A DNA stretch of 64,000 bases from Acidobacteriota bacterium (GCA_965218775.1 CBDCLS010000004.1:983890-1047889), one strand, 5' to 3'; shown: positions 22,807 to 56,484, counted from the stretch's first letter. Numbers and translations: made by a program. The notes: generated by a model not told the origin, from the sequence alone.

Positions 22807-23940
22807 ATGACCTCTCTCTCAAGTAAATTGCTACTCGCTCTGAGTGTACTGGCGATCGTGAGTCTCTCGATCGCGATCGGCGCTGCTGACACGCCCATTC
22901 CCGACCTCTCAGGAAAGATCTTGACGGTGAAGGGACCCATCGAGCCAAAGCTACTGGGACCTACCATCATGCATGAGCACGTCCTGATCGACTACCGGGG
23001 AAGACCCGAAGAACGGATCAAGAGCGCCACTGATGCGAGTTTCTACGAGGAACCTGTCTCCCTCGGCAACCTCAGCAAGATTCGGACCTGGGTTTCTGAA
23101 AACCAGGACAATCTGCTGCTAGGCGACGTCGATCTGGCCCTCCACGAAGTCCTGGATTTCAAGCGCTGGGGAGGTAGTGGGATCGTCGACTGCACCAGCA
23201 TCGGCCTGGGAAGGGACCCCTCCGGCCTGCTCCAGGTCTCCAATGCCAGCGGTCTGCACCTGATCATGGGCTCGGGATTCTACGTTGAGAGCTTTCACCC
23301 CCCGGACATGGACCAGCGAACCGTCGATGACCTGACCAAGATCATCATCCGTGACGTCACGGTCGGAGTCGCCGGGACCCCGATCCGCTCCGGGATCATC
23401 GGAGAAGTCGGGGTTGCCAGGGGATTGAAAGCAAGTGAGCTGAAGGGTGCGCGAGCAGCAGCCCGAGCCAGCCGCGCCACCGGAGCAGCCATCTCCTTTC
23501 ATCATGCGGGTGCGGGAGAGGAGAAGTTCACCACTCTCGACCTGGTCGCCTCCGAGGGAGCGGATCTGAACCGGGTCATCATCGGCCATGCCAACCACAT
23601 TGCTACCGATATTCCCTACATGAAACGGCTGCTCCAGCGGGGCGTGTATATTCAGTTCGACCTCTTCGGAGAGGTGATTCCGCGGCTGGGCCGCATCCAT
23701 GACTATGAGGTCGCGCAATCCATCGTCCAGCTGGTAAAGGACGGTCATGCCAATCGGCTCCTCCTCTCCCAGGACGTGTGCACCAAGTCCATGCTGAAGA
23801 CCTACGGAGGTATGGGTTTCTCCTACGTCATGGAATTCGTGCTGCCCGAGTTGCGGAGGTTGGGGGTGGCAGAGGACGCTCTCCGGCTGATCATGGTTGA
23901 GAACCCCAGAAGGGTCCTGACCTTTGCCAAGCCTGGTTAA
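22807..23940 (+). CDS. phosphotriesterase family protein (PTE / PLL-like metal hydrolase), secreted
   Basis: The signature GPTIMHEHVLID is present. It has a signal peptide and a TIM-barrel length. Confidence 0.7.
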   Translation: MTSLSSKLLLALSVLAIVSLSIAIGAADTPIPDLSGKILTVKGPIEPKLLGPTIMHEHVLIDYRGRPEERIKSATDASFYEEPVSLGNLSKIRTWVSENQDNLLLGDVDLALHEVLDFKRWGGSGIVDCTSIGLGRDPSGLLQVSNASGLHLIMGSGFYVESFHPPDMDQRTVDDLTKIIIRDVTVGVAGTPIRSGIIGEVGVARGLKASELKGARAAARASRATGAAISFHHAGAGEEKFTTLDLVASEGADLNRVIIGHANHIATDIPYMKRLLQRGVYIQFDLFGEVIPRLGRIHDYEVAQSIVQLVKDGHANRLLLSQDVCTKSMLKTYGGMGFSYVMEFVLPELRRLGVAEDALRLIMVENPRRVLTFAKPG

Positions 23941-24017
23941 CTCCCAAGATACAAGACGCAAAATACCCGAAATCTTGCGCTGGGAGTGCCGTGGCCGCCG
24001 TCAGGTGCAGCCACTTG

Positions 24018-24326
24018 TTAGTCAGCCTTGCGGCTTTCAAGCCACCGGCGCAGCGAGGTCTGGGTCTCACCGGAACGTCGCCCAGCCAGAAGACCCTCGA
24101 TGCTGATGTCTTCGTCCAAGTCGGGCCAGTGAATCCCTTCTCCTTCCCCAATGAGGCGCCAACGTCCGCGTTCGGCTGCGCTGCCATGTGCAAGGCGGGG
24201 GTACCAGGTCAGCGGAACAGCGATCATACGACCGTCGACAAGATCGACCACCAGCGCGTCTTCGGTCACCGACACGTGTTGAGCCCTTGCCTCGCTGGTG
24301 TCGCTCCGTGATGGTGAAATACTCAT
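24018..24326 (-). CDS. DUF2442 family protein (part of a DUF4160/DUF2442 TA-like pair)
   Basis: Motifs are DGRMIAVPLTWYPRL...ERGRWRLIGEGEGIHWPDLDEDIS. Confidence 0.6.
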   Translation of the reverse strand: MSISPSRSDTSEARAQHVSVTEDALVVDLVDGRMIAVPLTWYPRLAHGSAAERGRWRLIGEGEGIHWPDLDEDISIEGLLAGRRSGETQTSLRRWLESRKAD

Positions 24327-24329
24327 CCC

Positions 24330-24597
24330 ACATTCTCAGAAAGAGTTGCTCTTGTTCAATCACAAGCCGCTCAGGCCTCTGAAGCTCCACAGCGCCAAAA
24401 CCGCCGCTCCGAGCCAACCGTACAGGGCCAAGCCAGAACTTTGCACGGTTCGCCTCCCGTTCGACGTGAACGTGCGCGGGTTCGTTGCGGTCGGCCGAGT
24501 AAAAAAAGAACCGATAGGGACCCTCGCGATGAACCGTCGGCACGACATAAGTAGTTCGCTTGGTCGATCGTTCTCGGCGATTTGCGAGCGCCTCCAA
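24330..24597 (-). CDS. DUF4160 family protein (the 3' end is uncertain)
   Basis: The N-terminus VPTVHREGPYRFFFYSADRNEPAHVHVEREANRAKFW matches DUF4160. The track ORF has no stop until 24067, so the natural stop may be lost. Confidence 0.5.
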
Positions 24598-24623
24598 GCG
24601 ATTCCGATTCTCGATTCGGCCTG

Positions 24624-24917
24624 GCTAAACAGAGCGTCTTAAGTCTACGGTAACGTTTGTGGCGAGCGCGACGGGTCGAGGGCGCGAAGCGTCTCGACGC
24701 GAAGCGACGACGAGGCGATGCTTGGTATCGTAGAGGAGGAGCGACAAAGCCATCGGCCCGTCCCGTCGCCACCCGCGGGGCAGAGGGGGGTTGTGGACGA
24801 TCTCTGCGTGGGTCGTCGTCGAAGATGGCCAAGCATCGACTTTCTCCTCCCGCCTTGATCTCGCCTCACAAGCCCCCTCTGCAAACGTCACCGTAGACTT
24901 AAGACGCTCTGTTTAGC
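24624..24917. repeat. MITE-like palindromic repeat, copy 2
   Basis: It has the same conserved core as 2340-2615. Its own 28-bp terminal inverted repeat is gctaaacagagcgtcttaagtctacggt / accgtagacttaagacgctctgtttagc. Confidence 0.7.
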
Positions 24918-24923
24918 AGCTTG

Positions 24924-25238
24924 TTAGCGACCTCGCCCCCATTGCCGCCTCCGATTTCGACGACGCGGTGCGCGCGGGTTTGTCGGCTCCGAGTCGGAAG
25001 CGATGAGTTCGAGCGCAGCTCCGTACCTGGCAATCGTCGACACCCGAAGCTCCTCGTATTTTTCCGCAGGCACGCCGAATGCGGTGGCCGAGTACGCCCA
25101 GGCACACTGGCGAATCATGTCCCGGTCGAGCTTGGCGGAACACTCTGCGCAAAGGCAGAGATCGTCTACTGACGCGAACGCATCACACCCCTGGCAGTCG
25201 GCCTCAAAGGCTCCAAAATCAAGTTCGTCGTCGGGCAT
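24924..25238 (-). CDS. hypothetical Cys-rich small protein (zinc-ribbon-like CxxC...CxCxxC)
   Basis: This is an ORF only. It carries CQGCDAF...CLCAEC. There is no other support. Confidence 0.3.
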   Translation of the reverse strand: MPDDELDFGAFEADCQGCDAFASVDDLCLCAECSAKLDRDMIRQCAWAYSATAFGVPAEKYEELRVSTIARYGAALELIASDSEPTNPRAPRRRNRRRQWGRGR

Positions 25239-25352
25239 CGACTTCCTTCCTGTGTGCCGCTAACGTTCAGGCGATCAGCCGCGAGCGGCCCATCGCAATC
25301 GTACGAATTATACCCTTTCGCGACCGGGCCGCTCGTCGGCTGTAGCGGCTTG

Positions 25353-25688
25353 TTAGCCGGGCTCCTGACCCGCTCTAGTCAGCCAGTACAGCGGTCGCCG
25401 CTTTTGGTGCGCAACAGCGAGTACAAGCGAGGATTGGTGGTGGTGCTCAAAGGCGATGATATATGGAAATCATGCGACCGTCGCCTTGCGGATCATGGGT
25501 GAGCCCATACGAGTTCCGGTCCACCCCGAAAACGACTTCGGCATTTCGCCGATGCGCTCAAGAACCAGCTCAATAGCCGCTAGGAACTCACCGCCCAGGC
25601 CCGGGCGGCGTTCCTCGTACCACAGTGCCGCAGAACGAAACTCGGCTCGGGCTTCAGGATGAAGTTTGACCCGTGCGCCGCTGGGCAA
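25353..25688 (-). pseudogene. ParE/RelE-family toxin interrupted by an in-frame TGA
   Basis: The N-terminal segment VKLHPEARAEFRSAALWYEERRPGLGGEFLAAIELVLERI ends with ...IRKATVA, then a TGA at 25470-25472. The same frame continues FPYIIAFEHHHQSSLVLAVAHQKRRPLYW, which is the ParE C-terminal motif. Confidence 0.5.
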
Positions 25689-25902
25689 GTTCCTTCAGGA
25701 TCTCCTTCCGTACTGTCTCCCAGGCCAGCGCCTGAACGCGACCCTCAGCAACCTCTCGCGAACGCCGCTCCAACTCAGCCGCCCAAGCAGCGGAAACCTC
25801 GTCGTCGGACTCCTCGAGGCTGGAAAGGAGTTCTTCTGCTACTCGTGCACGCTCGCGGCGCGGCAACCGCAATGCTTCCACAAGAAGCTTGTCTGTGGAC
25901 AT
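25654..25902 (-). CDS. putative addiction-module antitoxin (TIGR02574-like)
   Basis: The sequence is MSTDKLLVEALRLPRRERARVAEELLSSLEE...EVSAAWAAELERRSREVAEGRVQALAWETV. It overlaps the ParE-like gene's 5' end. Confidence 0.55.
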   Translation of the reverse strand: MSTDKLLVEALRLPRRERARVAEELLSSLEESDDEVSAAWAAELERRSREVAEGRVQALAWETVRKEILKELAQRRTGQTSS

Positions 25903-26098
25903 GATGCCAGTTTGGCATACCGACCCGAGACCATCCTCTGCCAATTGGAACCCAATGCTGTCCGGCACCACCCAACGGAATGCGCTTCAGCGGCGTGCGC
26001 GCCACAAGATGTATTCGGGCCTTGCGCCAGTTTTGGGGAGCGGCCCGTCCGCTGCAAGCGCTTGTTGGGCAGCACTGCTAAGTGCTACGCTTTCCTTC

Positions 26099-26323
26099 AT
26101 GACCATCAAGGCGCGCGTCCGAGAAGGTCGACTCGTCGTCGACGAGCCGACGGAACTTCCAAATGGAACAGAAATAGACCTACTACCGCTCGACCCCGGC
26201 GACTGGCTCGATGAAGCTGACCGCGCAGCACTCCATGAGGCTCTGCGCCAGTCCGACACTGATGCCGCCGCGGGGAGACTCGTGGACGCTGAAGAGATTC
26301 TCAAGGACATCAGGTCGCGTTGA
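26099..26323 (+). CDS. antitoxin (DUF104/ParD-like) of an antitoxin-ParE pair
   Basis: The sequence is MTIKARVREGRLVVDEPTELPNGTEIDLLPLD.... It has a 4-bp overlap with the downstream toxin. Confidence 0.55.
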   Translation: MTIKARVREGRLVVDEPTELPNGTEIDLLPLDPGDWLDEADRAALHEALRQSDTDAAAGRLVDAEEILKDIRSR

Positions 26324-26625
26324 GGGACCGTCGCGTCCAGTTCACAGCGACTGCGCAACAACACGTCCGGCGAGAAAAGGCTTGGTGGCTTGAGAACAGA
26401 GTCCATACCGAGGTCTTTGCGACTGAACTCGAAACAGCCTTTCGAATCCTTACCCTCCTCCCTGGAGCTGGCACGCCTTATCCCGAAGCCGATGTGATTG
26501 GCATTCGTCGGTTGTATCTGCGAAAGATAGACTGTCATCTCTACTACACTTTCGACGAGCACGAAGTTGTCGTTCGTGCTTTGTGGGGTGCCCGTCGCCG
26601 TCGAGGACCGAAAATCACACAGTAG
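26320..26625 (+). CDS. ParE/RelE-family toxin
   Basis: A ParE-like N-terminus is present, together with the C-terminal motif GIRRLYLRKIDCHLYYTFDEHEVVVRALWGARR. Confidence 0.7.
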   Translation: MRDRRVQFTATAQQHVRREKAWWLENRVHTEVFATELETAFRILTLLPGAGTPYPEADVIGIRRLYLRKIDCHLYYTFDEHEVVVRALWGARRRRGPKITQ

Positions 26626-26749
26626 CTTTTCCTGAGTACATCTGTCCGCCCAACGGATTGGCCGCTCAGCGGCGCGACGCCTGCGGCGCGTCAACTGCCC
26701 CGCGGCTTGTTGGGCGGTCCAATCGCTCGTCTCTAAATCTGACTTGATG

Positions 26750-27645
26750 GGGCGCCTTGACGGAAACGCCACACTGAACCTAAGACTGGTCGAATCTGGT
26801 CCCGGATCGACTTTGAGAATAAACCCATCTCCGCGAAACTCTCCCTGAGAAATGAAGGCCGAGGGGGCGTAGACCGTGACCAGCGACTGCACGTATTCGT
26901 CACCCAATTTCAAAGCGGCTGGTGCTTCGAGCTTCGGTACCTCAGGGGGTTGATTTGAGTCGGGGACTGTCACTTGGCCGGGAGACGTCGTCTCCAGTTC
27001 TTCGAATGTGAACAGACCAAGGTGCTCCAGTACGTGAATGTGGCCCAGGCAGACCTTGAGTAGATGGTGTGTTGTGGTGTGAATTCGTTGAGTAGCTGCC
27101 TCCTCACACAGGGCGATGTGATCGCGGATCTGCGTCATCCGAGCACTGTCCTCCAGCCACCAGAAAGAACGACTCGAGCCAACACTTAGTTTGACGGGTA
27201 CGAATGTACCGGGGAGAGTTCGCGGATTAAGGTTGGGGTGATCGTTGATCACTCGTGTACCGATAAGGGCAATGCCACGACCCTCATAAGCTTCATCTGC
27301 ATGTGCGATCACACAGTTGCGAAGCTCCTTGAGAGCGTCGTGCATGGCGGTCTGCATTAGAGGCTTCACGTGTTTGCAGTTGGCCGCGCTTTCAAGGCCA
27401 GGGTTGTTCCTGTTGTCGCTCCAGGGCTTCCAGTACTCGATAACGATTGCCTTCGTATAGGCCATCTTGGCCTCGTAGCGAAGCTGGTCGAGGTCCTCGA
27501 CATACGCTTCTGCCATGCTGCGTGCCGCAGTCAGGCAAGTCCATAGCTGTACCGCTCCAGCCAGGTCGCGCCCGGGCCGCACCAGCTCTTGCCCAGCCTT
27601 GTCAATGTCAGCGGCTAGATCGATTTCGTTCTCGTGGCGGGTCAC
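26750..27645 (-). CDS. hypothetical protein (~300 aa credible); the 3' end is undefined
   Basis: The first ~300 aa have plausible composition. The same frame stays open to 25987, antisense through the ParE pair. Related hairpin repeats lie on both sides (26643-26712 and 27695-27775). Confidence 0.35.
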
Positions 27646-27766
27646 GTCATCGCCTTTGTACGAGGACGGTCAAGTTACTGATTTCGGATCGCCTCACTGT
27701 TAGATCCGCCCAACGGCTGGCGCATCAGCGGGGACGCGAGGCGTCGTCCCCGCCTGCATGCGCTGG

Positions 27767-27985
27767 TTAGCCATCGGATTTAGACTTTGTCGACTCTCTT
27801 TCGGCAATGAGTTGACGCACGGTGGATACGAGTTCTACAGGTACTTCCATCGTTGTATGCGTGGTCGCTTCGTAGACAGCTTCGTCTTCGGCCAACGCCT
27901 CCTCATCAGATTGGGACTCGTAGTGCTCAAGGACACGGCGGACTCGATCTTCATCCCATCCAGCTGGGTAGTTGGTTTTTTTCAT
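27767..27985 (-). CDS. putative antitoxin partnered with a BrnT-like toxin
   Basis: It has an acidic N-terminal half (WDEDRVRRVLEHYESQSDEEALAEDEAVYE). It overlaps the upstream DUF497-like gene by 4 bp. Confidence 0.45.
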   Translation of the reverse strand: MKKTNYPAGWDEDRVRRVLEHYESQSDEEALAEDEAVYEATTHTTMEVPVELVSTVRQLIAERESTKSKSDG

Positions 27986-28263
27986 GCTTTTCTCCTCAGT
28001 CTCCGCCGCAGGGCCTTCTTCGCCTTTGAACCGAGGTCGTAGGCCGTGATCACGAATGCTGAGCCCGCCTCGGGATCAGGAACATAGATCACTCGAAGGT
28101 AGCGGCCCTCGCTGGTTCGCCCAATCGCGACCCGTGATCCCTCTCGGCCATCCCGGTCTTCTAGTGGCCGCTCCAGCAACTCCTCGACCTCTTCTTCGTA
28201 TACCCCATGACGCCGCATATGCGCCATCCCGGTCGAAGAGTCGATATAGAAGCGTAACCGCAT
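27982..28263 (-). CDS. BrnT-like (DUF497/COG2929) RelE-fold toxin
   Basis: The RHGVYEEEVEELLERP...RVAIGRTSEGRYLRVIYVPD...FVITAYDLGSKAKKA pattern parallels the BrnT layout. Confidence 0.5.
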   Translation of the reverse strand: MRLRFYIDSSTGMAHMRRHGVYEEEVEELLERPLEDRDGREGSRVAIGRTSEGRYLRVIYVPDPEAGSAFVITAYDLGSKAKKALRRRLRRKA

Positions 28264-28609
28264 CCAATCATTCTAGCCCTTCCACGCAGAACGAAACGAA
28301 CTAGAAGTTCGGCTGCACGCCAACTGCTAACCGTTAAGCCGGAAGGACGATGGCCTGGGGCATCTTGTTGGAAGGATACTACCAACGGCGTATACAAGCA
28401 CAAATCGACACGCCCATCGCATGGTCAGTCCGCGCTCAATGCTTCGCCGCTGCGATTATTGCTGTGATAGCGCTTACTACTGATGCAATGGCTGCAATAA
28501 GCGCAAGCAACCAGAGGCGCAATTCTCGAATGGAACGCTCGGCTTGTGCGACCCGGCGTTGTAACTCGTGGTCAGGTGCGCGGCAAGCACGACCTGATGA
28601 ACTTTTCGC

Positions 28610-28712
28610 GATTGGATCTCCTTGGACATCCACACCTACCATCCAGTTCACAGAAACTGCGCGACAGCACGTTAAGCGAGAGGAAGCTTGGTGGCTTGAG
28701 AACCGGTATCTT
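28610..28712 (+). pseudogene. decayed duplicate of the antitoxin 3' end plus ParE 5' end (a TA-locus remnant)
   Basis: The stretch 28637-28700 (atccagttcacagaaactgcgcgacagcacgttaagcgagaggaagcttggtggcttgagaac) is ~85% identical to 26330-26395. It encodes IQFTETARQHVKREEAWWLENR and then diverges. Confidence 0.5.
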
Positions 28713-28740
28713 GGGATTTATTCCAGCTCCAACTTAGCCC

Positions 28741-30570
28741 CTACAGAGTAGAAAGAAAGGCGACTAGATCCGTGATCTCGGTCGGCGAGATCTTCTGATC
28801 CGGGTGTCGGTGGACTTCGAACACCTCTCTCAGGCTTTGGGCGCGGCCGTCATGGAAGAAAGAGGAGCGCAATCCGACCCCGCGCAGGGAGGGAGGGTTG
28901 AACTGGCGATTGCCAACTTCGTCGGCAAGACCGACGTCGGATGCACTCTTCGTCGTATAGGAGGGAGGCGCGTGGCAATGCTGACAGCCGCTGCTGACAA
29001 ACACTTCCCGGCCCTTTCGAACGGAAACTTCAGAGCTACTGGTAGGCAGCTGGGGTGGCTGCAGGGTGCGCAGAAATGTCTCCAGAGCTCGCACCTTTTC
29101 CCCTGAAGCAACCCGCGAGTGCAGCGTAGTCCGGAGCGACTTGCGGATCTGGTCTTCGAGAGCGGACATGCTGCCATTCCATGCCCAGGGGCCGCTGTCG
29201 CCCACACCGAGCAAGGACGGAACACGCTTAGGCGCACCGTAGTTCCCGTCGCCAAGCGTGTCGACGAGGAGCCCGTTGCTGTGTCCTTCCGAGTGGCAGC
29301 TGTGACAGCTCATCCAGCCGCGCAGCGAAAGCGTCGCGTCATAGAACAGCTGCTCACCCTTGTCTGCCAGAGTGAGATCGGCCTGCGCTCCAAGCGAGAC
29401 CTCCTTCACCGGCTTCCGGGAGGGGATGTCGATGACGGAAATCGAGTTCGAGAGCGTGTTGGCTACGTACAGACGCCCGTCCGAGCCAGAGGCCAGAGCC
29501 CTGGGACGGCGTCCCACCTTTACATGATCCAGGCGCGGCCAGGTGTGCTGACCGATGGCAACTCGGCCCACGCCCCCGACTGCCACGATTACCTCTCCAC
29601 TGGCTCCCACGATCACCTTCTGGGGGTCGCCGGAGGGAGTGCTGAAATCCCCCAGATCCAACGTACGCATGGCTGCCAGCATATTCCCGGTCGGCGAACG
29701 GATATCCGCTAGCCTAAGCGAAACCAGACTATTGGACATGAGTCCGCCCCACACAACGTCGTCGCGGTTGGCGCGGGCAAAAGGATCCAGGCTTTGCCGC
29801 GCCACGAGCAGATGTGAGCCGTCCGCGGTAACTGCCAGTCCACGTATGTTGTGGGCAGGCAGCTCCAAGACACGCTCTACCCGGTCCTGGGAAAGATCGA
29901 TCACTGCGAGCTTCCCACCGAAAGAGTCGGCCACCAGCAGACGGTCATCACCCGGCAAGACCACCTGCTCACGGGGTGCGAAGGGCAGCTCGAGTGAACC
30001 CAGCGAGCGAGGACCGGCAGCCGGATCCAACTCGATCAGGTCCAGGCGCCTGGACCACAGGCAGGCGACGAAACAGCGCCTTCCATCCGTGCTGATAGTC
30101 ACGCTGACGGGATAACGACCTACCGCGAGTCGATCCCGTACTTGAATGTCCCGAACATCTGGACCCGGGAGGGAAAGTAACAGGAGTTCGTGAGCTTCTT
30201 CGTCCACGGCCAACAGGCCACTTCCAATCGGGTCCCGGCTGGGCAAAAGGGCCAGGTCTCCAAGTGCTCTGCCCACCCTGGCCTCGAACTTCACCGCCAG
30301 CTCATCGGTGTCGATCACCGATAGGGTTCCGCTACGGCGGTTGGCTACGAAGAGCCGACGTCCTGGGTCGTCCAGGGCCAGTGCAACTGGATGTCGGATC
30401 AGGGCCTGGCGATGGAGAGAATCTGCATCGCTCCTATCCAGACTGGAGGCCCCTTTCGAGCCGTCGAAGGGCAAGGGAGGAGCAACGTGCTGAGCCTGGG
30501 ACCACTGGCACCAAAAAACGAGGAATGCCAGGAGGCAGGCGAGAACTCTCAATTCGCGGACCGTGGACAC
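28741..30570 (-). CDS. YVTN-type beta-propeller fused to a di-haem cytochrome c peroxidase (CCP/MauG family) domain, secreted
   Basis: There are two CxxCH motifs (CHSCH, CQHCH). CCP-like motifs are GPWAWNGS and FNPPSLRGVGL...FFHDGRA. The N-terminus has a repeated propeller. Confidence 0.7.
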   Translation of the reverse strand: MSTVRELRVLACLLAFLVFWCQWSQAQHVAPPLPFDGSKGASSLDRSDADSLHRQALIRHPVALALDDPGRRLFVANRRSGTLSVIDTDELAVKFEARVGRALGDLALLPSRDPIGSGLLAVDEEAHELLLLSLPGPDVRDIQVRDRLAVGRYPVSVTISTDGRRCFVACLWSRRLDLIELDPAAGPRSLGSLELPFAPREQVVLPGDDRLLVADSFGGKLAVIDLSQDRVERVLELPAHNIRGLAVTADGSHLLVARQSLDPFARANRDDVVWGGLMSNSLVSLRLADIRSPTGNMLAAMRTLDLGDFSTPSGDPQKVIVGASGEVIVAVGGVGRVAIGQHTWPRLDHVKVGRRPRALASGSDGRLYVANTLSNSISVIDIPSRKPVKEVSLGAQADLTLADKGEQLFYDATLSLRGWMSCHSCHSEGHSNGLLVDTLGDGNYGAPKRVPSLLGVGDSGPWAWNGSMSALEDQIRKSLRTTLHSRVASGEKVRALETFLRTLQPPQLPTSSSEVSVRKGREVFVSSGCQHCHAPPSYTTKSASDVGLADEVGNRQFNPPSLRGVGLRSSFFHDGRAQSLREVFEVHRHPDQKISPTEITDLVAFLSTL

Positions 30571-32606: not shown

Positions 32607-34080
32607 CTGGACATTCCCCATTTTTCAGAGGCCCAGAGGAAGCAGGGACAGCTGACGGGAGCTGGGATCGGGTCGAGCCCCGCCAATCCCGCTGTGGCGG
32701 CCGAATAGGAGCTGCTTGATGCCATCGGCTATGGCATAGAAGCGGAACTCCGGGATGCCGTAGATCCGTTTGGCTGCCTGCTCGATGTGTTGGACCAGAA
32801 GGGCCAGCTTGGCCCTTTTACCCAGATAGACACAGGCGAAGAAGGCGGCGATCATGACCAAGGCGGCCATATTGCGCAGGCGCTCATACTTGAGCAAACG
32901 GATGTCTTCCAACTCGTAGCTCTGCTTGATAAATCGGATCGTTTCCTCGACACGCCAGCGGCTCAGATAGCTCTCGACCACCCGCCACTGGCTCTTGCGC
33001 GAGCGTTTGACCGTCTGGTTCGTCAGAAGCATCAGGGGACGGGGGCCAAAGCCATCCACCACCACCAGGTACAGCGATTGGTCGAAACCGGGCAAACGCA
33101 CCCCTCGGGCCCCAAACTCCAACCGGTAGACCTTCTCCCCCGCACTCGTCTCCTTGATCACGACTTCCCGGTAGCGGCGCCGACAACCACGCGCCCACTC
33201 CTCGGCGCTCTTCTTGCTGCGCCCTGAGATCAGGTGACGATCCCCCCGCTGGCACACCAGGAACGGGTGTCCCCGCTTCAGCAGGACTTCGAGGATCTCC
33301 TCCCGATCCCCTCCCCGGTCCATCACCCAGATCCCTCGCCCTTGGGTGGCTTTGGAGACTCGCCCAATCGCCTTGAGGATCTCGTCGTTTTCGCTCACAA
33401 AGTCCGGCGCTTTCTGCGAGTACAGCTCCTGGTACAACGGCAGCACCTCGGCACTCCCCCGCCTCGCTCCGACCACCTCACAGCACCAGTATCCATCTCG
33501 GATCTCCCCTCGGGAGCCGTCCCGGACCCGCGCCAGGTATTGCATCTTCCGGGCATATGGCTTACTCACATCCGTGGGGTCCACAATCAACAGCGTCTCC
33601 TTCTCCACCCGCCAGGCCGCCAACTCCAGCAGATTCTTTCCCACCGCTCCTCTCAATCCCTGACGGTTGAGTTGGCGGCTCAGCCGCTCGATGACTTTCT
33701 TCAGAGCGATCTCCTCCTCCAGTGCTCGCGCAATCTCGCTGAGCCGGACCGACGCCCGACACTGCATCCCGTAGAGCACCTCCCGGATCAAACGAGCGGC
33801 GGTCTTCGGTAATCCTTCAGAGACCTTCCCCGAAAATTCTCTCAGCTGCTCTCGAATCTTCCACGCTACTTTGGCATCATGCATCTGGGTCCCTCCGCTT
33901 AATTGGTTGTTGGGTTTGGAGTTCCGCCAACCAGTCTAAGCGCTAGGGACCCACACTTTTGGGGGTCGACAGTTCCCCCATTTTCTCCCAATTTCAACCC
34001 ATCCCACTTCCCTTATCGCCCTACTCTCTTGTTCTCAACTACTTGAGAGAATTCACCCTCAATTTTTGGGGAATGTCCTG
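32607..34080. mobile_element. IS element (DDE transposase, IS4/ISAs1-like), 1474 bp, with a 9-bp target-site duplication
   Basis: The terminal inverted repeat is ctggacattcccca (32607-32620) / tggggaatgtcctg (34067-34080), with 1 mismatch. It is flanked by the direct repeat ataccttgc at 32598-32606 and 34081-34089. Confidence 0.75.
32625..33884 (-). CDS. DDE-type transposase
   Basis: This 419-aa ORF fills the IS element. Its features are transposase-like (DDE_Tnp_1-like). Confidence 0.7.
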   Translation of the reverse strand: MHDAKVAWKIREQLREFSGKVSEGLPKTAARLIREVLYGMQCRASVRLSEIARALEEEIALKKVIERLSRQLNRQGLRGAVGKNLLELAAWRVEKETLLIVDPTDVSKPYARKMQYLARVRDGSRGEIRDGYWCCEVVGARRGSAEVLPLYQELYSQKAPDFVSENDEILKAIGRVSKATQGRGIWVMDRGGDREEILEVLLKRGHPFLVCQRGDRHLISGRSKKSAEEWARGCRRRYREVVIKETSAGEKVYRLEFGARGVRLPGFDQSLYLVVVDGFGPRPLMLLTNQTVKRSRKSQWRVVESYLSRWRVEETIRFIKQSYELEDIRLLKYERLRNMAALVMIAAFFACVYLGKRAKLALLVQHIEQAAKRIYGIPEFRFYAIADGIKQLLFGRHSGIGGARPDPSSRQLSLLPLGL

Positions 34081-43152: not shown

Positions 43153-44330
43153 TGATCTCATAAGAACACGGCCTCCTCGTCAGGGTCGACTGCTATTGAG
43201 CAGTAGGTTGGCCCGGAGTTCAGACGAGTCTGGGGACTCATCGACGAGGAGGCCAAAATGAAAGTAATTGGATGTGATTTTCACACAAGGTTCCAAGTGA
43301 TTGCAATGCTGGATACGGAAACGGGAGAGCTGCAGGAGCGACGCTTGAAACACGAAGGAAAGGAGGTGGAGCGATTCTACGGGGCGCTGCAGGGTCCGAC
43401 GGTGGTGGGAATTGAAAGCACGGGGTATTCGATCTGGTTTGACGAGCTGATGGACGAGTTGGGGGTGAAGCTGCAAGTGGGAGATGCGGCGAAGATCCGA
43501 GCCCAGCGGGTGCGCAAGAAGAAGAATGATGAGGAGGATGCGCGACTGATTCGGAAGCTGTTAGTGGAGGATCGTTTTCCCCAGATCTGGGTGATCGACG
43601 CCGAGGGACGGGATCTGCGTCAGGTGCTGAGTCAGCGCCGGCGCTGGGTTCGGACGCGGACCCAGATCAAGAATGGGCTGCAGTCGTTGGCGCTCAATCA
43701 TCGGCTGGCGTTGGGGTCGAAGTTGTTCAGCCAGGCGGGGCAACGAGCGTTTGCCCAGTTGAAGCTGCGTCCCTACGCCCAGCAGTCGGCGGAGCAGTGG
43801 TGGGAAGGACTGGAGTGGCTCGGGCCTCGGATCGCCGTGCTGGAGCGACAGATCGAGCAAGCGGTGGCCCAGCGACCCGAAGCGGAGCGCCTGAGGACCT
43901 ATCCTGGGGTGGGACCGGTGACGGCCCTGGCCTGGGTGCTGATCGTGGGTCCGATCCAACGCTTTGGCGGTGGGGGCCAGTTGTCGAGCTACGTGGGCTT
44001 GACGCCGACGGAGCACTCCAGTGGGGGCCGGCAGCGGTTGGGTCACATCAGCAAACAGGGATCGAAGTTCCTGCGCTACCAACTGGTGGAGGCGTCGGTC
44101 TCCGTGAGGCGACTGCAACCGGAGCTGCGTCGTTTCTACCGTCGTTTGACCTCTCGTCGCGGGTTCCAAGTGGCCCAGACGGCGGTGGCCCGAAAGTTGT
44201 GTGAGCATCTGTACGTGATGCATCGAGATGAGATCGACTATGCGGAGTTCGTTCGCCGCGGTCTTCTCGCGAGGCGTGCTTGAGAAGATTCATGACTTGT
44301 CTAGAGTCGACAAGCTGATTAGGCAGCCTC
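43150..44330 (+). mobile_element. IS110-family element (ends approximate; this family lacks terminal inverted repeats)
   Basis: The transposase gene has ~100 bp of leader. It sits immediately beside a REP-like repeat, which is the usual IS110 target preference. Confidence 0.4.
43258..44283 (+). CDS. IS110-family transposase
   Basis: It has the N-terminal DEDD-type catalytic module (VVGIESTGYS) and the C-terminal YPGVGPVTALAWVL...SYVGLTPTEHSSGG motif typical of IS110/IS116/IS902. Confidence 0.8.
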   Translation: MKVIGCDFHTRFQVIAMLDTETGELQERRLKHEGKEVERFYGALQGPTVVGIESTGYSIWFDELMDELGVKLQVGDAAKIRAQRVRKKKNDEEDARLIRKLLVEDRFPQIWVIDAEGRDLRQVLSQRRRWVRTRTQIKNGLQSLALNHRLALGSKLFSQAGQRAFAQLKLRPYAQQSAEQWWEGLEWLGPRIAVLERQIEQAVAQRPEAERLRTYPGVGPVTALAWVLIVGPIQRFGGGGQLSSYVGLTPTEHSSGGRQRLGHISKQGSKFLRYQLVEASVSVRRLQPELRRFYRRLTSRRGFQVAQTAVARKLCEHLYVMHRDEIDYAEFVRRGLLARRA

Positions 44331-48428: not shown

Positions 48429-48701
48429 TACGCTGTAACACAGATTATGACGGATTTATGGCGAGCGCGACGGGTCGAGATCGCGAAGCGACGACGAACG
48501 CCATGCTTGGCCATAGTGGAGGAGGAGCGACAAAGATATCGGCCCGTCCCGTCGCCACCCGAAGGGCAGATGGGGGTTGTGGACGATCTCTGCGTTGGTC
48601 GTCGTCGAAGATGACCAAGCATCGTCTTCCTCCTCCTGCCTTGATCTCGCCCCACAAGCCCCATCTGCAAATCCGTCATAATCTGTGTTACAGCGTACTA
48701 G
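48425..48701. repeat. MITE-like palindromic repeat, copy 3
   Basis: It shares the conserved core. Its own terminal inverted repeat is ctagtacgctgtaacacagattatgacggatttatg / caaatccgtcataatctgtgttacagcgtactag. The left end supplies the TAG stop of the DUF218 gene. Confidence 0.7.
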
Positions 48702-55168: not shown

Positions 55169-56484
55169 CAGTAGTGTCCCAGCGTTAGTCGAATAATATC
55201 AACTGTTTATGAATGTCACTATTCTGAGTAATGTAGTCCATGTCCTGAAAGGCCTGTAAAATGGGGGTTTTCTCGAAGAGCGAGACGCTCAGGACCTGGA
55301 GAATTGTGTAGAGCGGCAACTCGAGATAGAGACGCTTGCGAATGATGGCGATGAGCAGGTAGGTGCTGAGGGCGATCCAGATTTGTGTTTTCACGGCATT
55401 GGGACTGGTGCCGTAAAAGGCCTTGATGCGGAGATGCTGTTTGATCCATTTGAAGAACAGTTCGATCTGCCAGCGGAGCTTGTAGAGCTGGGCAATGGTC
55501 AGAGCGGGAGAAGCAAAGTCGTTGGTGAGGAATACGAGCCGCAGGTCGGTGGTGACGTCGAAGAACTTGATACGACGCAAAGGTTCGGGGTAGGCCTTGG
55601 CCGGATAGAAGGTGCTCAGCAGGACAGTTTGGTCGCAGACTAGTCCGGTCGTTCTGTCCACCGCATGGGAGTAGCGGCGGCGGAACTTGAAGTTGGCCTT
55701 GGCGCGGGTCACGAACAACGACCGAGCGGTATGGAGTCGGTACAGGCGCCCGAAATCCAGGTATCCGCGATCCATGATGTAGTAGGCACCGGGACAAGGC
55801 ATCAGGTGGTCCAAGGCGTTGACATCGTGCAGTTTCCCGTCCGAGATCAGAACAAATTCGGGAATGGCGCCGTGCAGGTTGAGTAAGGTATGCAGTTTGA
55901 TCGCCCCCTTGGTGCGGCGGAAGCGCGCCCAGGGGAAGACCGAGAGGCACAGGTCGATGGTCGTGGAATCCAAGGCATAGACGGTCGCGTCCAGGTCGAC
56001 TCCCAGGTCCTCGTCGGTGTAAAGGCTGCGCGCTTCGGCGATGAGCACTTCGGCAAACTCGGCATAGATGCGCCAGTCTCGCCTCTCGTTGGCATTGGAC
56101 AGATTGTTGCGGGAGACCGTGGAGCGAATGCCCATGTGGAAGAGCTTGGATCTCATGGCCCGTAGGCAGGCTTCGATATCGCGCAAGCTCTCGCGATAGG
56201 TCAACTGCGCAAATGCCATGACCCGGTAATGGTCGGCACAACGGAATGACTTGACCTTGTAGTCGCCTCGGTAGTGCTGAACAATGCGATGAAAACGATG
56301 CCAGGGAAGATGCCGCATCACCTGAGAAAAGATCGTCGTGCCCGTGTACATGCCCGCCCTCCTTATGAACTGAAGGGCGTGAGCATACACTCACTTTCAA
56401 GTCGGAAACACCTATTATCTTCTCTAACATATTGCTCATTAATACTTTACAGAGATTAGAGTCCCAAACGTTGGGACACTACTG
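55169..56484. mobile_element. IS4-family IS element, 1316 bp, with an 18-bp terminal inverted repeat and a 9-bp target-site duplication
   Basis: The terminal inverted repeat is cagtagtgtcccagcgtt (55169-55186) / aacgttgggacactactg (56467-56484), with 1 mismatch. The direct repeat atcccactt lies at 55160-55168 and 56485-56493. The element has lower GC than its flanks. Confidence 0.8.
55185..56390 (-). CDS. IS4-family DDE transposase
   Basis: Its C-terminus LYKLRWQIELFFKWIKQHLRIKAFYGTSPNAVKTQIWIALSTYLL is the classic IS4 signature. Confidence 0.8.
   Translation of the reverse strand: MYAHALQFIRRAGMYTGTTIFSQVMRHLPWHRFHRIVQHYRGDYKVKSFRCADHYRVMAFAQLTYRESLRDIEACLRAMRSKLFHMGIRSTVSRNNLSNANERRDWRIYAEFAEVLIAEARSLYTDEDLGVDLDATVYALDSTTIDLCLSVFPWARFRRTKGAIKLHTLLNLHGAIPEFVLISDGKLHDVNALDHLMPCPGAYYIMDRGYLDFGRLYRLHTARSLFVTRAKANFKFRRRYSHAVDRTTGLVCDQTVLLSTFYPAKAYPEPLRRIKFFDVTTDLRLVFLTNDFASPALTIAQLYKLRWQIELFFKWIKQHLRIKAFYGTSPNAVKTQIWIALSTYLLIAIIRKRLYLELPLYTILQVLSVSLFEKTPILQAFQDMDYITQNSDIHKQLILFD

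Follow-up and report, generated by a model that had tools for sequence, protein, structure and literature searches.

A toxin-antitoxin island in a marine Acidobacteriota genome is very probably a decaying integron cassette array without an integrase

In the 64,000-nucleotide stretch of an Acidobacteriota bacterium analysed here (GCA_965218775.1, CBDCLS010000004.1:983890-1047889; hereafter the window), the genes of a PTE-family hydrolase and of a CCP/MauG-type di-haem peroxidase converge, and between them lies an island of about 4.7 kb. It holds a DUF4160/DUF2442 gene pair, a cysteine-rich open reading frame (ORF), an antitoxin gene with a ParE toxin pseudogene, an intact antitoxin-ParE pair on the other strand, a gene of ~303 codons, a DUF4258 gene with a small partner and a fragment of a further ParE gene, together with palindromes and a foldback element that resembles a miniature inverted-repeat transposable element (MITE). 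The island limits are given by conservation of the flanks: the 3' flank of the PTE gene is kept with the related locus L005 up to ~23983, and that of the CCP gene with L004 from ~28730. The initial annotation had described a toxin-antitoxin (TA) island. We conclude that it is very probably an array of integron cassettes, at least six in number, that is decaying in the genome of a marine Acidobacteriota and has no integrase nearby, i.e. a cluster of attC sites lacking integron-integrases (CALIN). The attC recombination site of integron cassettes is an imperfect palindrome, RYYYAAC...GTTRRRY, which folds as single-stranded DNA and is cut by the integron integrase supplied in trans.

The palindromes had been noticed in the initial annotation, which missed their nature; on the minus strand they closely resemble attC sites extracted from plasmid class-1 integrons. 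We searched both strands of the whole window, unfiltered, with a covariance model (R1) of the R box, the L box and the two bulges, built from only 11 bona fide class-1 integron attC sites from clinical plasmids; a regular-expression scan for RYYYAAC...GTTRRRY pairs is neither sensitive nor specific, and the covariance model was used instead. R1 gave six matches in the window, the four best of which (sites c to f; Table 1) are all on the minus strand, full length and placed in the gaps between modules, within 2.6 kb of each other. A CALIN, in the sense of IntegronFinder, is recognised by two or more attC sites found close together with a structure-and-sequence model, and this is what R1 finds here. 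For comparison, a held-out true attC site (estX) scores 25.4 bits, and the background over ~146 kb of related loci does not exceed 12.6 bits. Sites c and d score higher than every match in these control loci and stand above background by themselves, while e and f are backed by position, strand and shared sequence. Site d (GCCCAACAAGCGCTTGCAGCGGAC) is closely alike to the cmlA1 attC site (GCCCAACAAATCGCTGCAGCCGAC), and all window matches to CCGCCCAACRR (three) and to GCTTGTTRG (four) fall inside the island. At the far end of the array, the left arm of site a (AACAAGTGGCTGCACCTGA) resembles the estX attC site (AACAAGTTGCTGCACCGGA) and gives a weak 7.5-bit R1 match via the near-identical contig L001; no matching right arm was found at the site. 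The MITE interrupts site b, for which no R' was found; the sequence CAGGCCGA beyond the MITE resembles the L'' consensus and may have been part of this site.

The anatomy of the palindromes is that of attC sites. GCCCAAC and GTTGGGC fit RYYYAAC and GTTRRRY exactly, and GGCTAAC and GTTAGCG do so with one or two deviations. The TAA stop codon of four minus-strand genes lies inside R'' (..CTAAC): DUF2442, the cysteine-rich ORF, the pseudogene of ParE and the partner of DUF4258. An attC site is defined as an imperfect hairpin with extrahelical bases on the bottom-strand arm opposite the AAC (PMC5027507), and sites c, d and f fold as single-stranded hairpins with bulges on the arm expected for the bottom strand. 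Furthermore, the sites can be examined for cassette register, i.e. the rule that the six bases at the end of an R' are part of the cassette that follows and pair with its R''. The R' of site f (GTTGGGC) pairs at 7/7 positions with the R'' of the next cassette (GCCCAAC), against 5/7 with its own R'' (GGCTAAC). Likewise, pairing is 7/7 between the R' of site c (GTTAGCG) and the R'' of the cysteine-rich ORF cassette (CGCTAAC), 7/7 between the R' of site e and the R'' of the inverted ParE cassette, and 6/7 between the R' of site g and the R'' of the DUF4258 cassette. We judge that the register holds overall, with one junction, at site d, failing.

Table 1. Features of the island and its flanking genes, with window positions.
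Feature	Position	Strand	Remarks
PTE-family hydrolase gene	22807-23940	plus	left neighbour of the island
Whole island, probable CALIN	23984-28729 (approx.)	minus	array top strand is the window minus strand
attC a, truncated	23984-24023	minus	only R'' (GACTAAC) and L'' arm left
DUF2442 gene, 102 aa	24018-24326	minus	PF10387, E 2.1e-22; TAA inside R'' of attC a
DUF4160 gene	24067-24543	minus	GTG start at 24543; PF13711, E 6.7e-14
MITE-like foldback element, ~290 bp	24624-24917	unstranded	36-nt inverted ends 24624-24659 and 24882-24917; inserted in attC b
attC b remnant	24918-24927	minus	R'' (CGCTAAC) and spacer; rest displaced by MITE or lost
Cysteine-rich ORF, 104 aa	24924-25238	minus	CxxC...CxxC motifs; TAA in R''; called as gene in L001
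attC c	25258-25358	minus	GGCTAAC...GTTAGCG; R1 19.3 bits, E 0.03, best window match; hairpin z -6.1, bulges opposite AAC
ParE pseudogene	25356-25688	minus	in-frame TGA at 25470-25472
Unstab_antitox/TIGR02574 antitoxin, intact, 82 aa	25654-25902	minus	PF09720, E 1.4e-14; TIGR02574, E 1.5e-11
attC d	25970-26070	minus	GCCCAAC...GTTGGGT; R1 16.5 bits; attC of inverted ParE cassette
Presumed antitoxin of intact ParE, 74 aa	26099-26323	plus	4-bp TTGA overlap with ParE (26320-26323)
Intact ParE, 101 aa	26320-26625	plus	TTG start; ParE_toxin 23.6 bits (cut-off 23)
attC e	26648-26715	minus	GCCCAAC...GTTGGGC; R1 11.2 bits, background level alone; shares sequence signature of c and d
~303-aa gene, rare family, possibly HEPN/AbiU2-like	26737-27645	minus	stop lost, ORF runs to 25987
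attC f	27708-27772	minus	GGCTAAC...GTTGGGC; R1 11.1 bits; hairpin z -3.9
Presumed antitoxin, 72-aa partner of DUF4258	27767-27985	minus	4-bp ATGA overlap (27982-27985); TAA in R''
DUF4258 toxin-like protein, 93 aa	27982-28263	minus	PF14076, E 4.4e-7, 30.5 bits (cut-off 25)
Possible short degenerate attC g	28329-28372	minus	TCCAAC...GTTAGCA; by eye only, R1 silent
62-nt internal fragment of second ParE2-type gene	28642-28703	plus	84% identical to 26336-26397
CCP/MauG-type di-haem peroxidase gene	28741-30570	minus	right neighbour of the island

With these sites, each module is one cassette, i.e. one or two genes followed by an attC site. Along the window's minus strand the array reads DUF4258 toxin and partner (1), the ~303-aa, possibly HEPN-like protein (2), antitoxin and ParE in inverted orientation (3), Unstab antitoxin and ParE pseudogene (4), the cysteine-rich ORF (5) and DUF4160 with DUF2442 (6). 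Genes run in the direction of the array in five of the six cassettes, and the inverted antitoxin-ParE cassette presumably carries its own promoter.

The inverted cassette also occurs elsewhere. The initial annotation had pointed out its intact antitoxin-ParE pair with a 4-bp overlap, and this stands. The 101-aa ParE has 320 homologues, most of them 101 aa long with near full-length cover, up to 84% identical and often named ParE, from which we take it to be a genuine gene; its profile score lies above the gathering threshold of PF05016 and it has an overlapping upstream antitoxin gene, so that it is a predicted toxin. The 74-aa protein matched neither Pfam nor NCBIfam. The gene pair recurs with 72-80% DNA identity in three unrelated metagenome contigs (L133, L134 and L135), each with the 74-aa partner and the same overlap, and this conserved arrangement, together with position, suggests the presumed antitoxin role. 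In L134 and L135, the cassette is flanked by opposite-strand R1 matches of 16.5-28.7 bits; in L133, it has a one-sided, weak 9.4-bit match only, and homology runs into attC d, the right part of which (26043-26070, plus strand) lies inside the stretch matching L133. In the window, the homology extends from within attC d as far as the R' of attC e, which are the predicted cassette limits. The same cassette is found in other arrays with different neighbours, a sign of mobility. On L133, a 41.7-bit attC site adjoins part of a gene whose product shares 49% identity with residues 135-232 of IntI1.

Two of these contigs offer further observations. L134, a JGI metagenome contig, holds a clear array of ~8 attC sites (L134:5600-11700), with cassettes that include PIN/MazE, Unstab_antitox/ParE, antitoxin/ParE, SnoaL, glyoxalase and HEAT-repeat proteins; the two with ParE run against the direction of the array. 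On L133, an IS110 transposase gene follows immediately after the ParE cassette. Some IS110/IS1111 elements target attC sites.

Comparison with relatives shows a variable locus and bore out the hotspot that the initial annotation had considered likely. Two sister species (L004 and L006), whose PTE genes are 93-94% identical to that of the window, have no island, and the PTE-CCP gap is 257 and 140 bp, respectively; L005 and L007 carry unrelated DNA at the same site. In the empty spacer of L004 (L004:11134-11390), GTTAGCC stands right after the CCP stop codon, exactly at the right breakpoint of the island (window 28729), and the same spacer has GCCTGAAGCGCGAGCGAGGGGTTGGAC, a stretch similar to the right arm of an attC site in L053. 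It may be that the site once held a single attC-like entry point. The island ends also carry a 15-nt inverted repeat (23938-23952 and 28706-28720), but over 6 kb such a repeat does not exceed chance level, and it was not used.

Several observations weigh against a cassette array. The E-values of individual attC sites are modest (0.03 to 3), with e and f alone at background level, and sites a, b and g are degenerate and were judged by eye. The bottom strand folds more stably than the top strand only at site c, i.e. there is no consistent preference for it in the folding energies, and the register fails between site d and the ParE-pseudogene cassette (TTGGGT versus GGCTAAC, 4/7). R1 finds no attC site near L028, the intact pair most similar to the pseudogene pair, or near homologues of the ~303-aa gene (L002 and L003), and the insertions in L005 and L007 are not cassette arrays, with no R1 attC match. 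Finally, no integron integrase was found in the window by tblastn with IntI1 (best E 3.3), by Pfam on 20 large ORFs, none of which has a Phage_integrase domain, or among the gene calls of L001, and a complete integron with intI, attI and Pc beside the array is not present in the window. It is for this reason that the array is classed as a CALIN, and that we infer, rather than observe, its assembly by an integrase.

Some of these points would suit an ordinary TA or defence island, in which selfish TA modules were inserted independently at a recombination hotspot and the palindromes were repetitive extragenic palindrome-like repeats or terminators. The non-cassette DNA in L005 and L007 indicates a general hotspot, there is no integrase nearby, and two of the four attC matches are at background level. 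Yet the palindromes match a model trained solely on clinical attC sites, and they share strand, RYYYAAC/GTTRRRY ends, bulge asymmetry and cassette register; the ParE cassette lies between attC matches in other arrays; and terminator-like hairpins are not enriched (6 found versus 4.9 expected). With this in mind, we consider an ordinary TA island unlikely and retain the decaying cassette array.

In the fourth cassette, the antitoxin is intact whereas the toxin is a pseudogene, as the initial annotation had claimed. The two genes overlap by ~35 bp, and the minus-strand translation of 25330-25688 returns exactly the peptide reported before, ...IRKATVA*FPYIIAFEHH... Replacing the stop by X gives a 111-aa product that matches Pfam ParE_toxin (PF05016) with 26.6 bits (cut-off 23). 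Its 425 homologues are 104-107 aa long; at the position of the stop, 15 aligned intact homologues have Arg (13), His (1) or Gln (1), and the downstream residues are still conserved. The most parsimonious history is a change of CGA into TGA, and the lesion is recent. In the closest intact pair (L028, 87% DNA identity), ParE starts with GTG, where the window has GCA, with a TTG four codons upstream; the start of the pseudogene may thus be impaired, too. A PDB sequence search with the pseudogene product gave chance matches only. L001, a contig from an independent ENA metagenome assembly (ERZ25067264), carries the identical TGA and matches the window with 99.98% identity over 16.6 kb, which makes a sequencing error at this position unlikely. 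A working TA pair, with the TGA being an assembly error, read through or recoded, might be suggested by the frame past the stop, which is intact and highly similar to the homologues, so that the lesion is very recent or tolerated. However, the independently assembled L001 comes from another sample record and differs from the window by single-nucleotide polymorphisms (SNPs) and an insertion sequence (IS), the canonical GTG start has changed as well, all 15 aligned homologues have a sense codon at this position, and nothing points to a reassignment of TGA, with which neighbouring antitoxin genes end. A live toxin is therefore very unlikely, and we keep to a nonsense pseudogene.

The second cassette had been overlooked, as had the cysteine-rich ORF and the missing DUF4160 stop codon. 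Its gene is a member of a rare family (49 representatives in a set of 1.84 billion proteins). Homologues of full length have 307 and 309 aa and end just behind RRPI. In the window, the frame runs on across attC e and then over the antisense strand of the antitoxin-ParE pair to 25987. The gene calls in both public assemblies (P0001 and P0006) give a 492-aa ORF and leave the antitoxin-ParE pair unannotated. Judging from the homologues, the 492-aa protein is a fusion artefact made of the ~303-aa gene, an attC site and the antisense of the intact antitoxin-ParE pair, which causes public annotation to miss a ParE module. The opposite reading, of a real 552-aa gene (annotated as 492 aa; minus strand, 25987-27645) facing a spurious antisense pair, has the uninterrupted frame and the choice of the gene callers in its favour, but is extremely unlikely given homologues of its N-terminal part that end after RRPI and an extension consisting of an attC site and the antisense of a ParE gene with hundreds of homologues and a conserved partner.

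In the ~303-aa family, an R-x5-H motif is invariant and the core is a helical bundle, and 7 of 26 relatives show weak matches to HEPN_AbiU2 (PF18734), the HEPN-domain RNases of abortive-infection and TA systems, which it may resemble in these features. An extra beta-hairpin insertion and a beta domain at the C-terminus set it apart from those RNases, and the window protein itself scores below all Pfam and PADLOC thresholds. Fold matches are to generic four-helix bundles, and Foldseek against the PDB gave nothing significant for the model. The protein may be a cassette-borne RNase toxin or an abortive-infection effector.

For the first cassette, the initial annotation had proposed a BrnT-like toxin with an antitoxin. 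The 4-bp overlap of the two genes is there, but the toxin-like protein fails as BrnT (PF04365, 17.5 bits versus a cut-off of 34.5) and belongs to DUF4258 instead. Its 72-aa partner has no family match in Pfam, NCBIfam or PADLOC and is presumed to be the antitoxin from its position and the overlap. Altogether, the family assignments of the initial annotation largely pass the profile searches, with BrnT failing and the 74-aa and 72-aa partners matching no family. The DUF4160/DUF2442 pair is among those that pass: both domains are found in adjacent, overlapping genes, the same pairing occurs on plasmids, and it is a candidate TA pair. The normal stop codon of DUF4160 after WDEYFT (~24310) is gone, and the frame runs on for 81 codons, out of frame over DUF2442; homologues stop right after WDxYFT, e.g. 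a 78-aa Salmonella protein ending in WDAYFTK. The cysteine-rich ORF has no match in Pfam, NCBIfam or PADLOC, and PADLOC found no defence-system match for any island protein.

Near the right end of the island, the initial annotation had placed a 75-bp remnant (28637-28700) duplicating an antitoxin-ParE junction. A ParE fragment does exist there, yet it comprises 62 nt, spans ParE codons ~6-27, and shows no detectable similarity to an antitoxin 3' end upstream. With the ParE genes of L133 and L134 it shares 75% identity. Because it is only 84% identical to the ParE gene of the island, a duplication is unsupported, and the fragment is better read as the probable wreck of a second, related cassette. 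Of the TA turnover proposed before, nonsense inactivation and decay stand, duplication is not shown, and the cassette mechanism had been missed. Between this fragment and the possible attC g lies an uncalled 71-aa ORF (28436-28651, minus strand), coiled in its N-terminal part and hydrophobic towards the C-terminus (LWLLALIAAIASVVSAITAIIAAA), which could be a small membrane-protein cassette or spurious.

The element that the initial annotation called a MITE copy is present, and it is one of three in the window (the others at 2320-2620 and 48440-48700), with copies in sister species at L006:5500-5590 and L007:17327-17510. A 22-nt core pattern has 100 matches, nearly all in 95 marine metagenome stretches (L038-L132). 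Among 53 copies with located ends, the inverted ends are mostly 31-44 nt long with conserved termini, and in subfamilies the middle of both arms changes together so that complementarity is kept. These subfamilies and termini rule out arms that are unrelated between copies, an idea considered with a structured RNA in mind. We identified neither a target-site duplication nor a partner transposase, and no Rfam family matches the element (E up to 10); Rfam on the whole window at gathering thresholds gave nothing relevant.

Like elements of the IS1111-attC group and group IIC-attC introns, the island MITE sits inside an attC site, directly after R'' and spacer. Unlike those, it is a ~290-bp foldback, and the other two window copies do not lie beside R1 matches. 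A search of 685 kb of MITE-bearing loci with R1 gave only two matches of ~15 bits, of which the first overlaps the end of a MITE and the second adjoins an incomplete copy. As a speculation, given the covarying arms that keep the hairpin and the place inside an attC site, the repeat could be a hairpin-dependent element mobilised as a single strand and able to target folded attC sites. It would then be a new non-autonomous counterpart of the group IIC-attC introns and IS1111-attC elements, and one by which the excision of cassettes is disabled. A separate idea is that the orphan antitoxin could be kept as an anti-addiction factor against related ParE cassettes. We consider both proposals unlikely.

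Returning to the cassette array, the TA modules might also account for its persistence. Loss of a TA cassette would kill the cell (post-segregational or 'cassette-loss' killing), whereby neighbouring cassettes would be stabilised, and TA cassettes would accumulate in arrays because losing one is lethal. TA cassettes are indeed enriched in chromosomal integrons and thought to stabilise arrays (PMC13108822), and attC sites of Acidobacteria have already been modelled (PMC8352920). The probable signs of decay comprise the C-to-T-type nonsense mutation and lost start codon of ParE beside an intact antitoxin, the attC site invaded by a MITE-like element, the truncated last attC site, the ParE cassette reduced to a fragment and two genes without their stop codons.

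The island shares several traits with CALINs and sedentary chromosomal integrons, an example being the superintegron of Vibrio cholerae, whose cassettes include ParDE, RelBE, HigBA and Phd-Doc. The cassettes stand in tandem and are 0.65-1.1 kb long, the attC sites have RYYYAAC/GTTRRRY boxes and bulges, stop codons lie inside R'', TA modules are found among cassettes of unknown function, and one TA cassette is inverted. The island differs from integrons of the Vibrio cholerae type in that intI, attI and Pc are all missing over at least 25 kb, in its small size (about six cassettes), in its origin from a marine Acidobacteriota metagenome-assembled genome, and in the decay of several attC sites, with which the array may no longer be mobile. 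Similarly, the modules resemble type II ParDE in that an upstream antitoxin gene overlaps that of a ~100-aa toxin of the ParE/RelE fold (PF05016). In contrast to ParDE, the antitoxins are not ParD (one is Unstab_antitox/TIGR02574, the other has no family), one toxin is a nonsense pseudogene, and activity is predicted only.

As such, the description of a TA island becomes mechanistic, since mobile integron cassettes would explain the spacing and orientation of the modules, their shared repeats and their turnover. The island provides a worked example of an integrase-less cassette array in an uncultured marine Acidobacteriota, and of how such an array may decay: a toxin killed by a nonsense mutation with its antitoxin kept, a MITE-like element inside an attC site, a stop codon lost at an attC junction. 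It leaves the current understanding of integrons and TA systems unchanged, and TA cassettes, one of them nonsense-killed, are expected in such arrays.

Beyond the island, L001 differs from the window by three SNPs (20717, 26286 and 26811) and one IS. Two of the SNPs fall inside the island, in the antitoxin gene of the intact ParE (26286) and in the ~303-aa gene (26811). The IS of 1,474 bp at 32607-34080 encodes a 419-aa DDE_Tnp_1 transposase, is flanked by a 9-bp duplication (ATACCTTGC) and is recent or polymorphic, since it is missing from the near-identical L001. The window also holds an IS110-family transposase gene at 43258-44283 (DEDD_Tnp_IS110 and Transposase_20) and a further DDE transposase gene at 55185-56390 (DUF4372 and DDE_Tnp_1).

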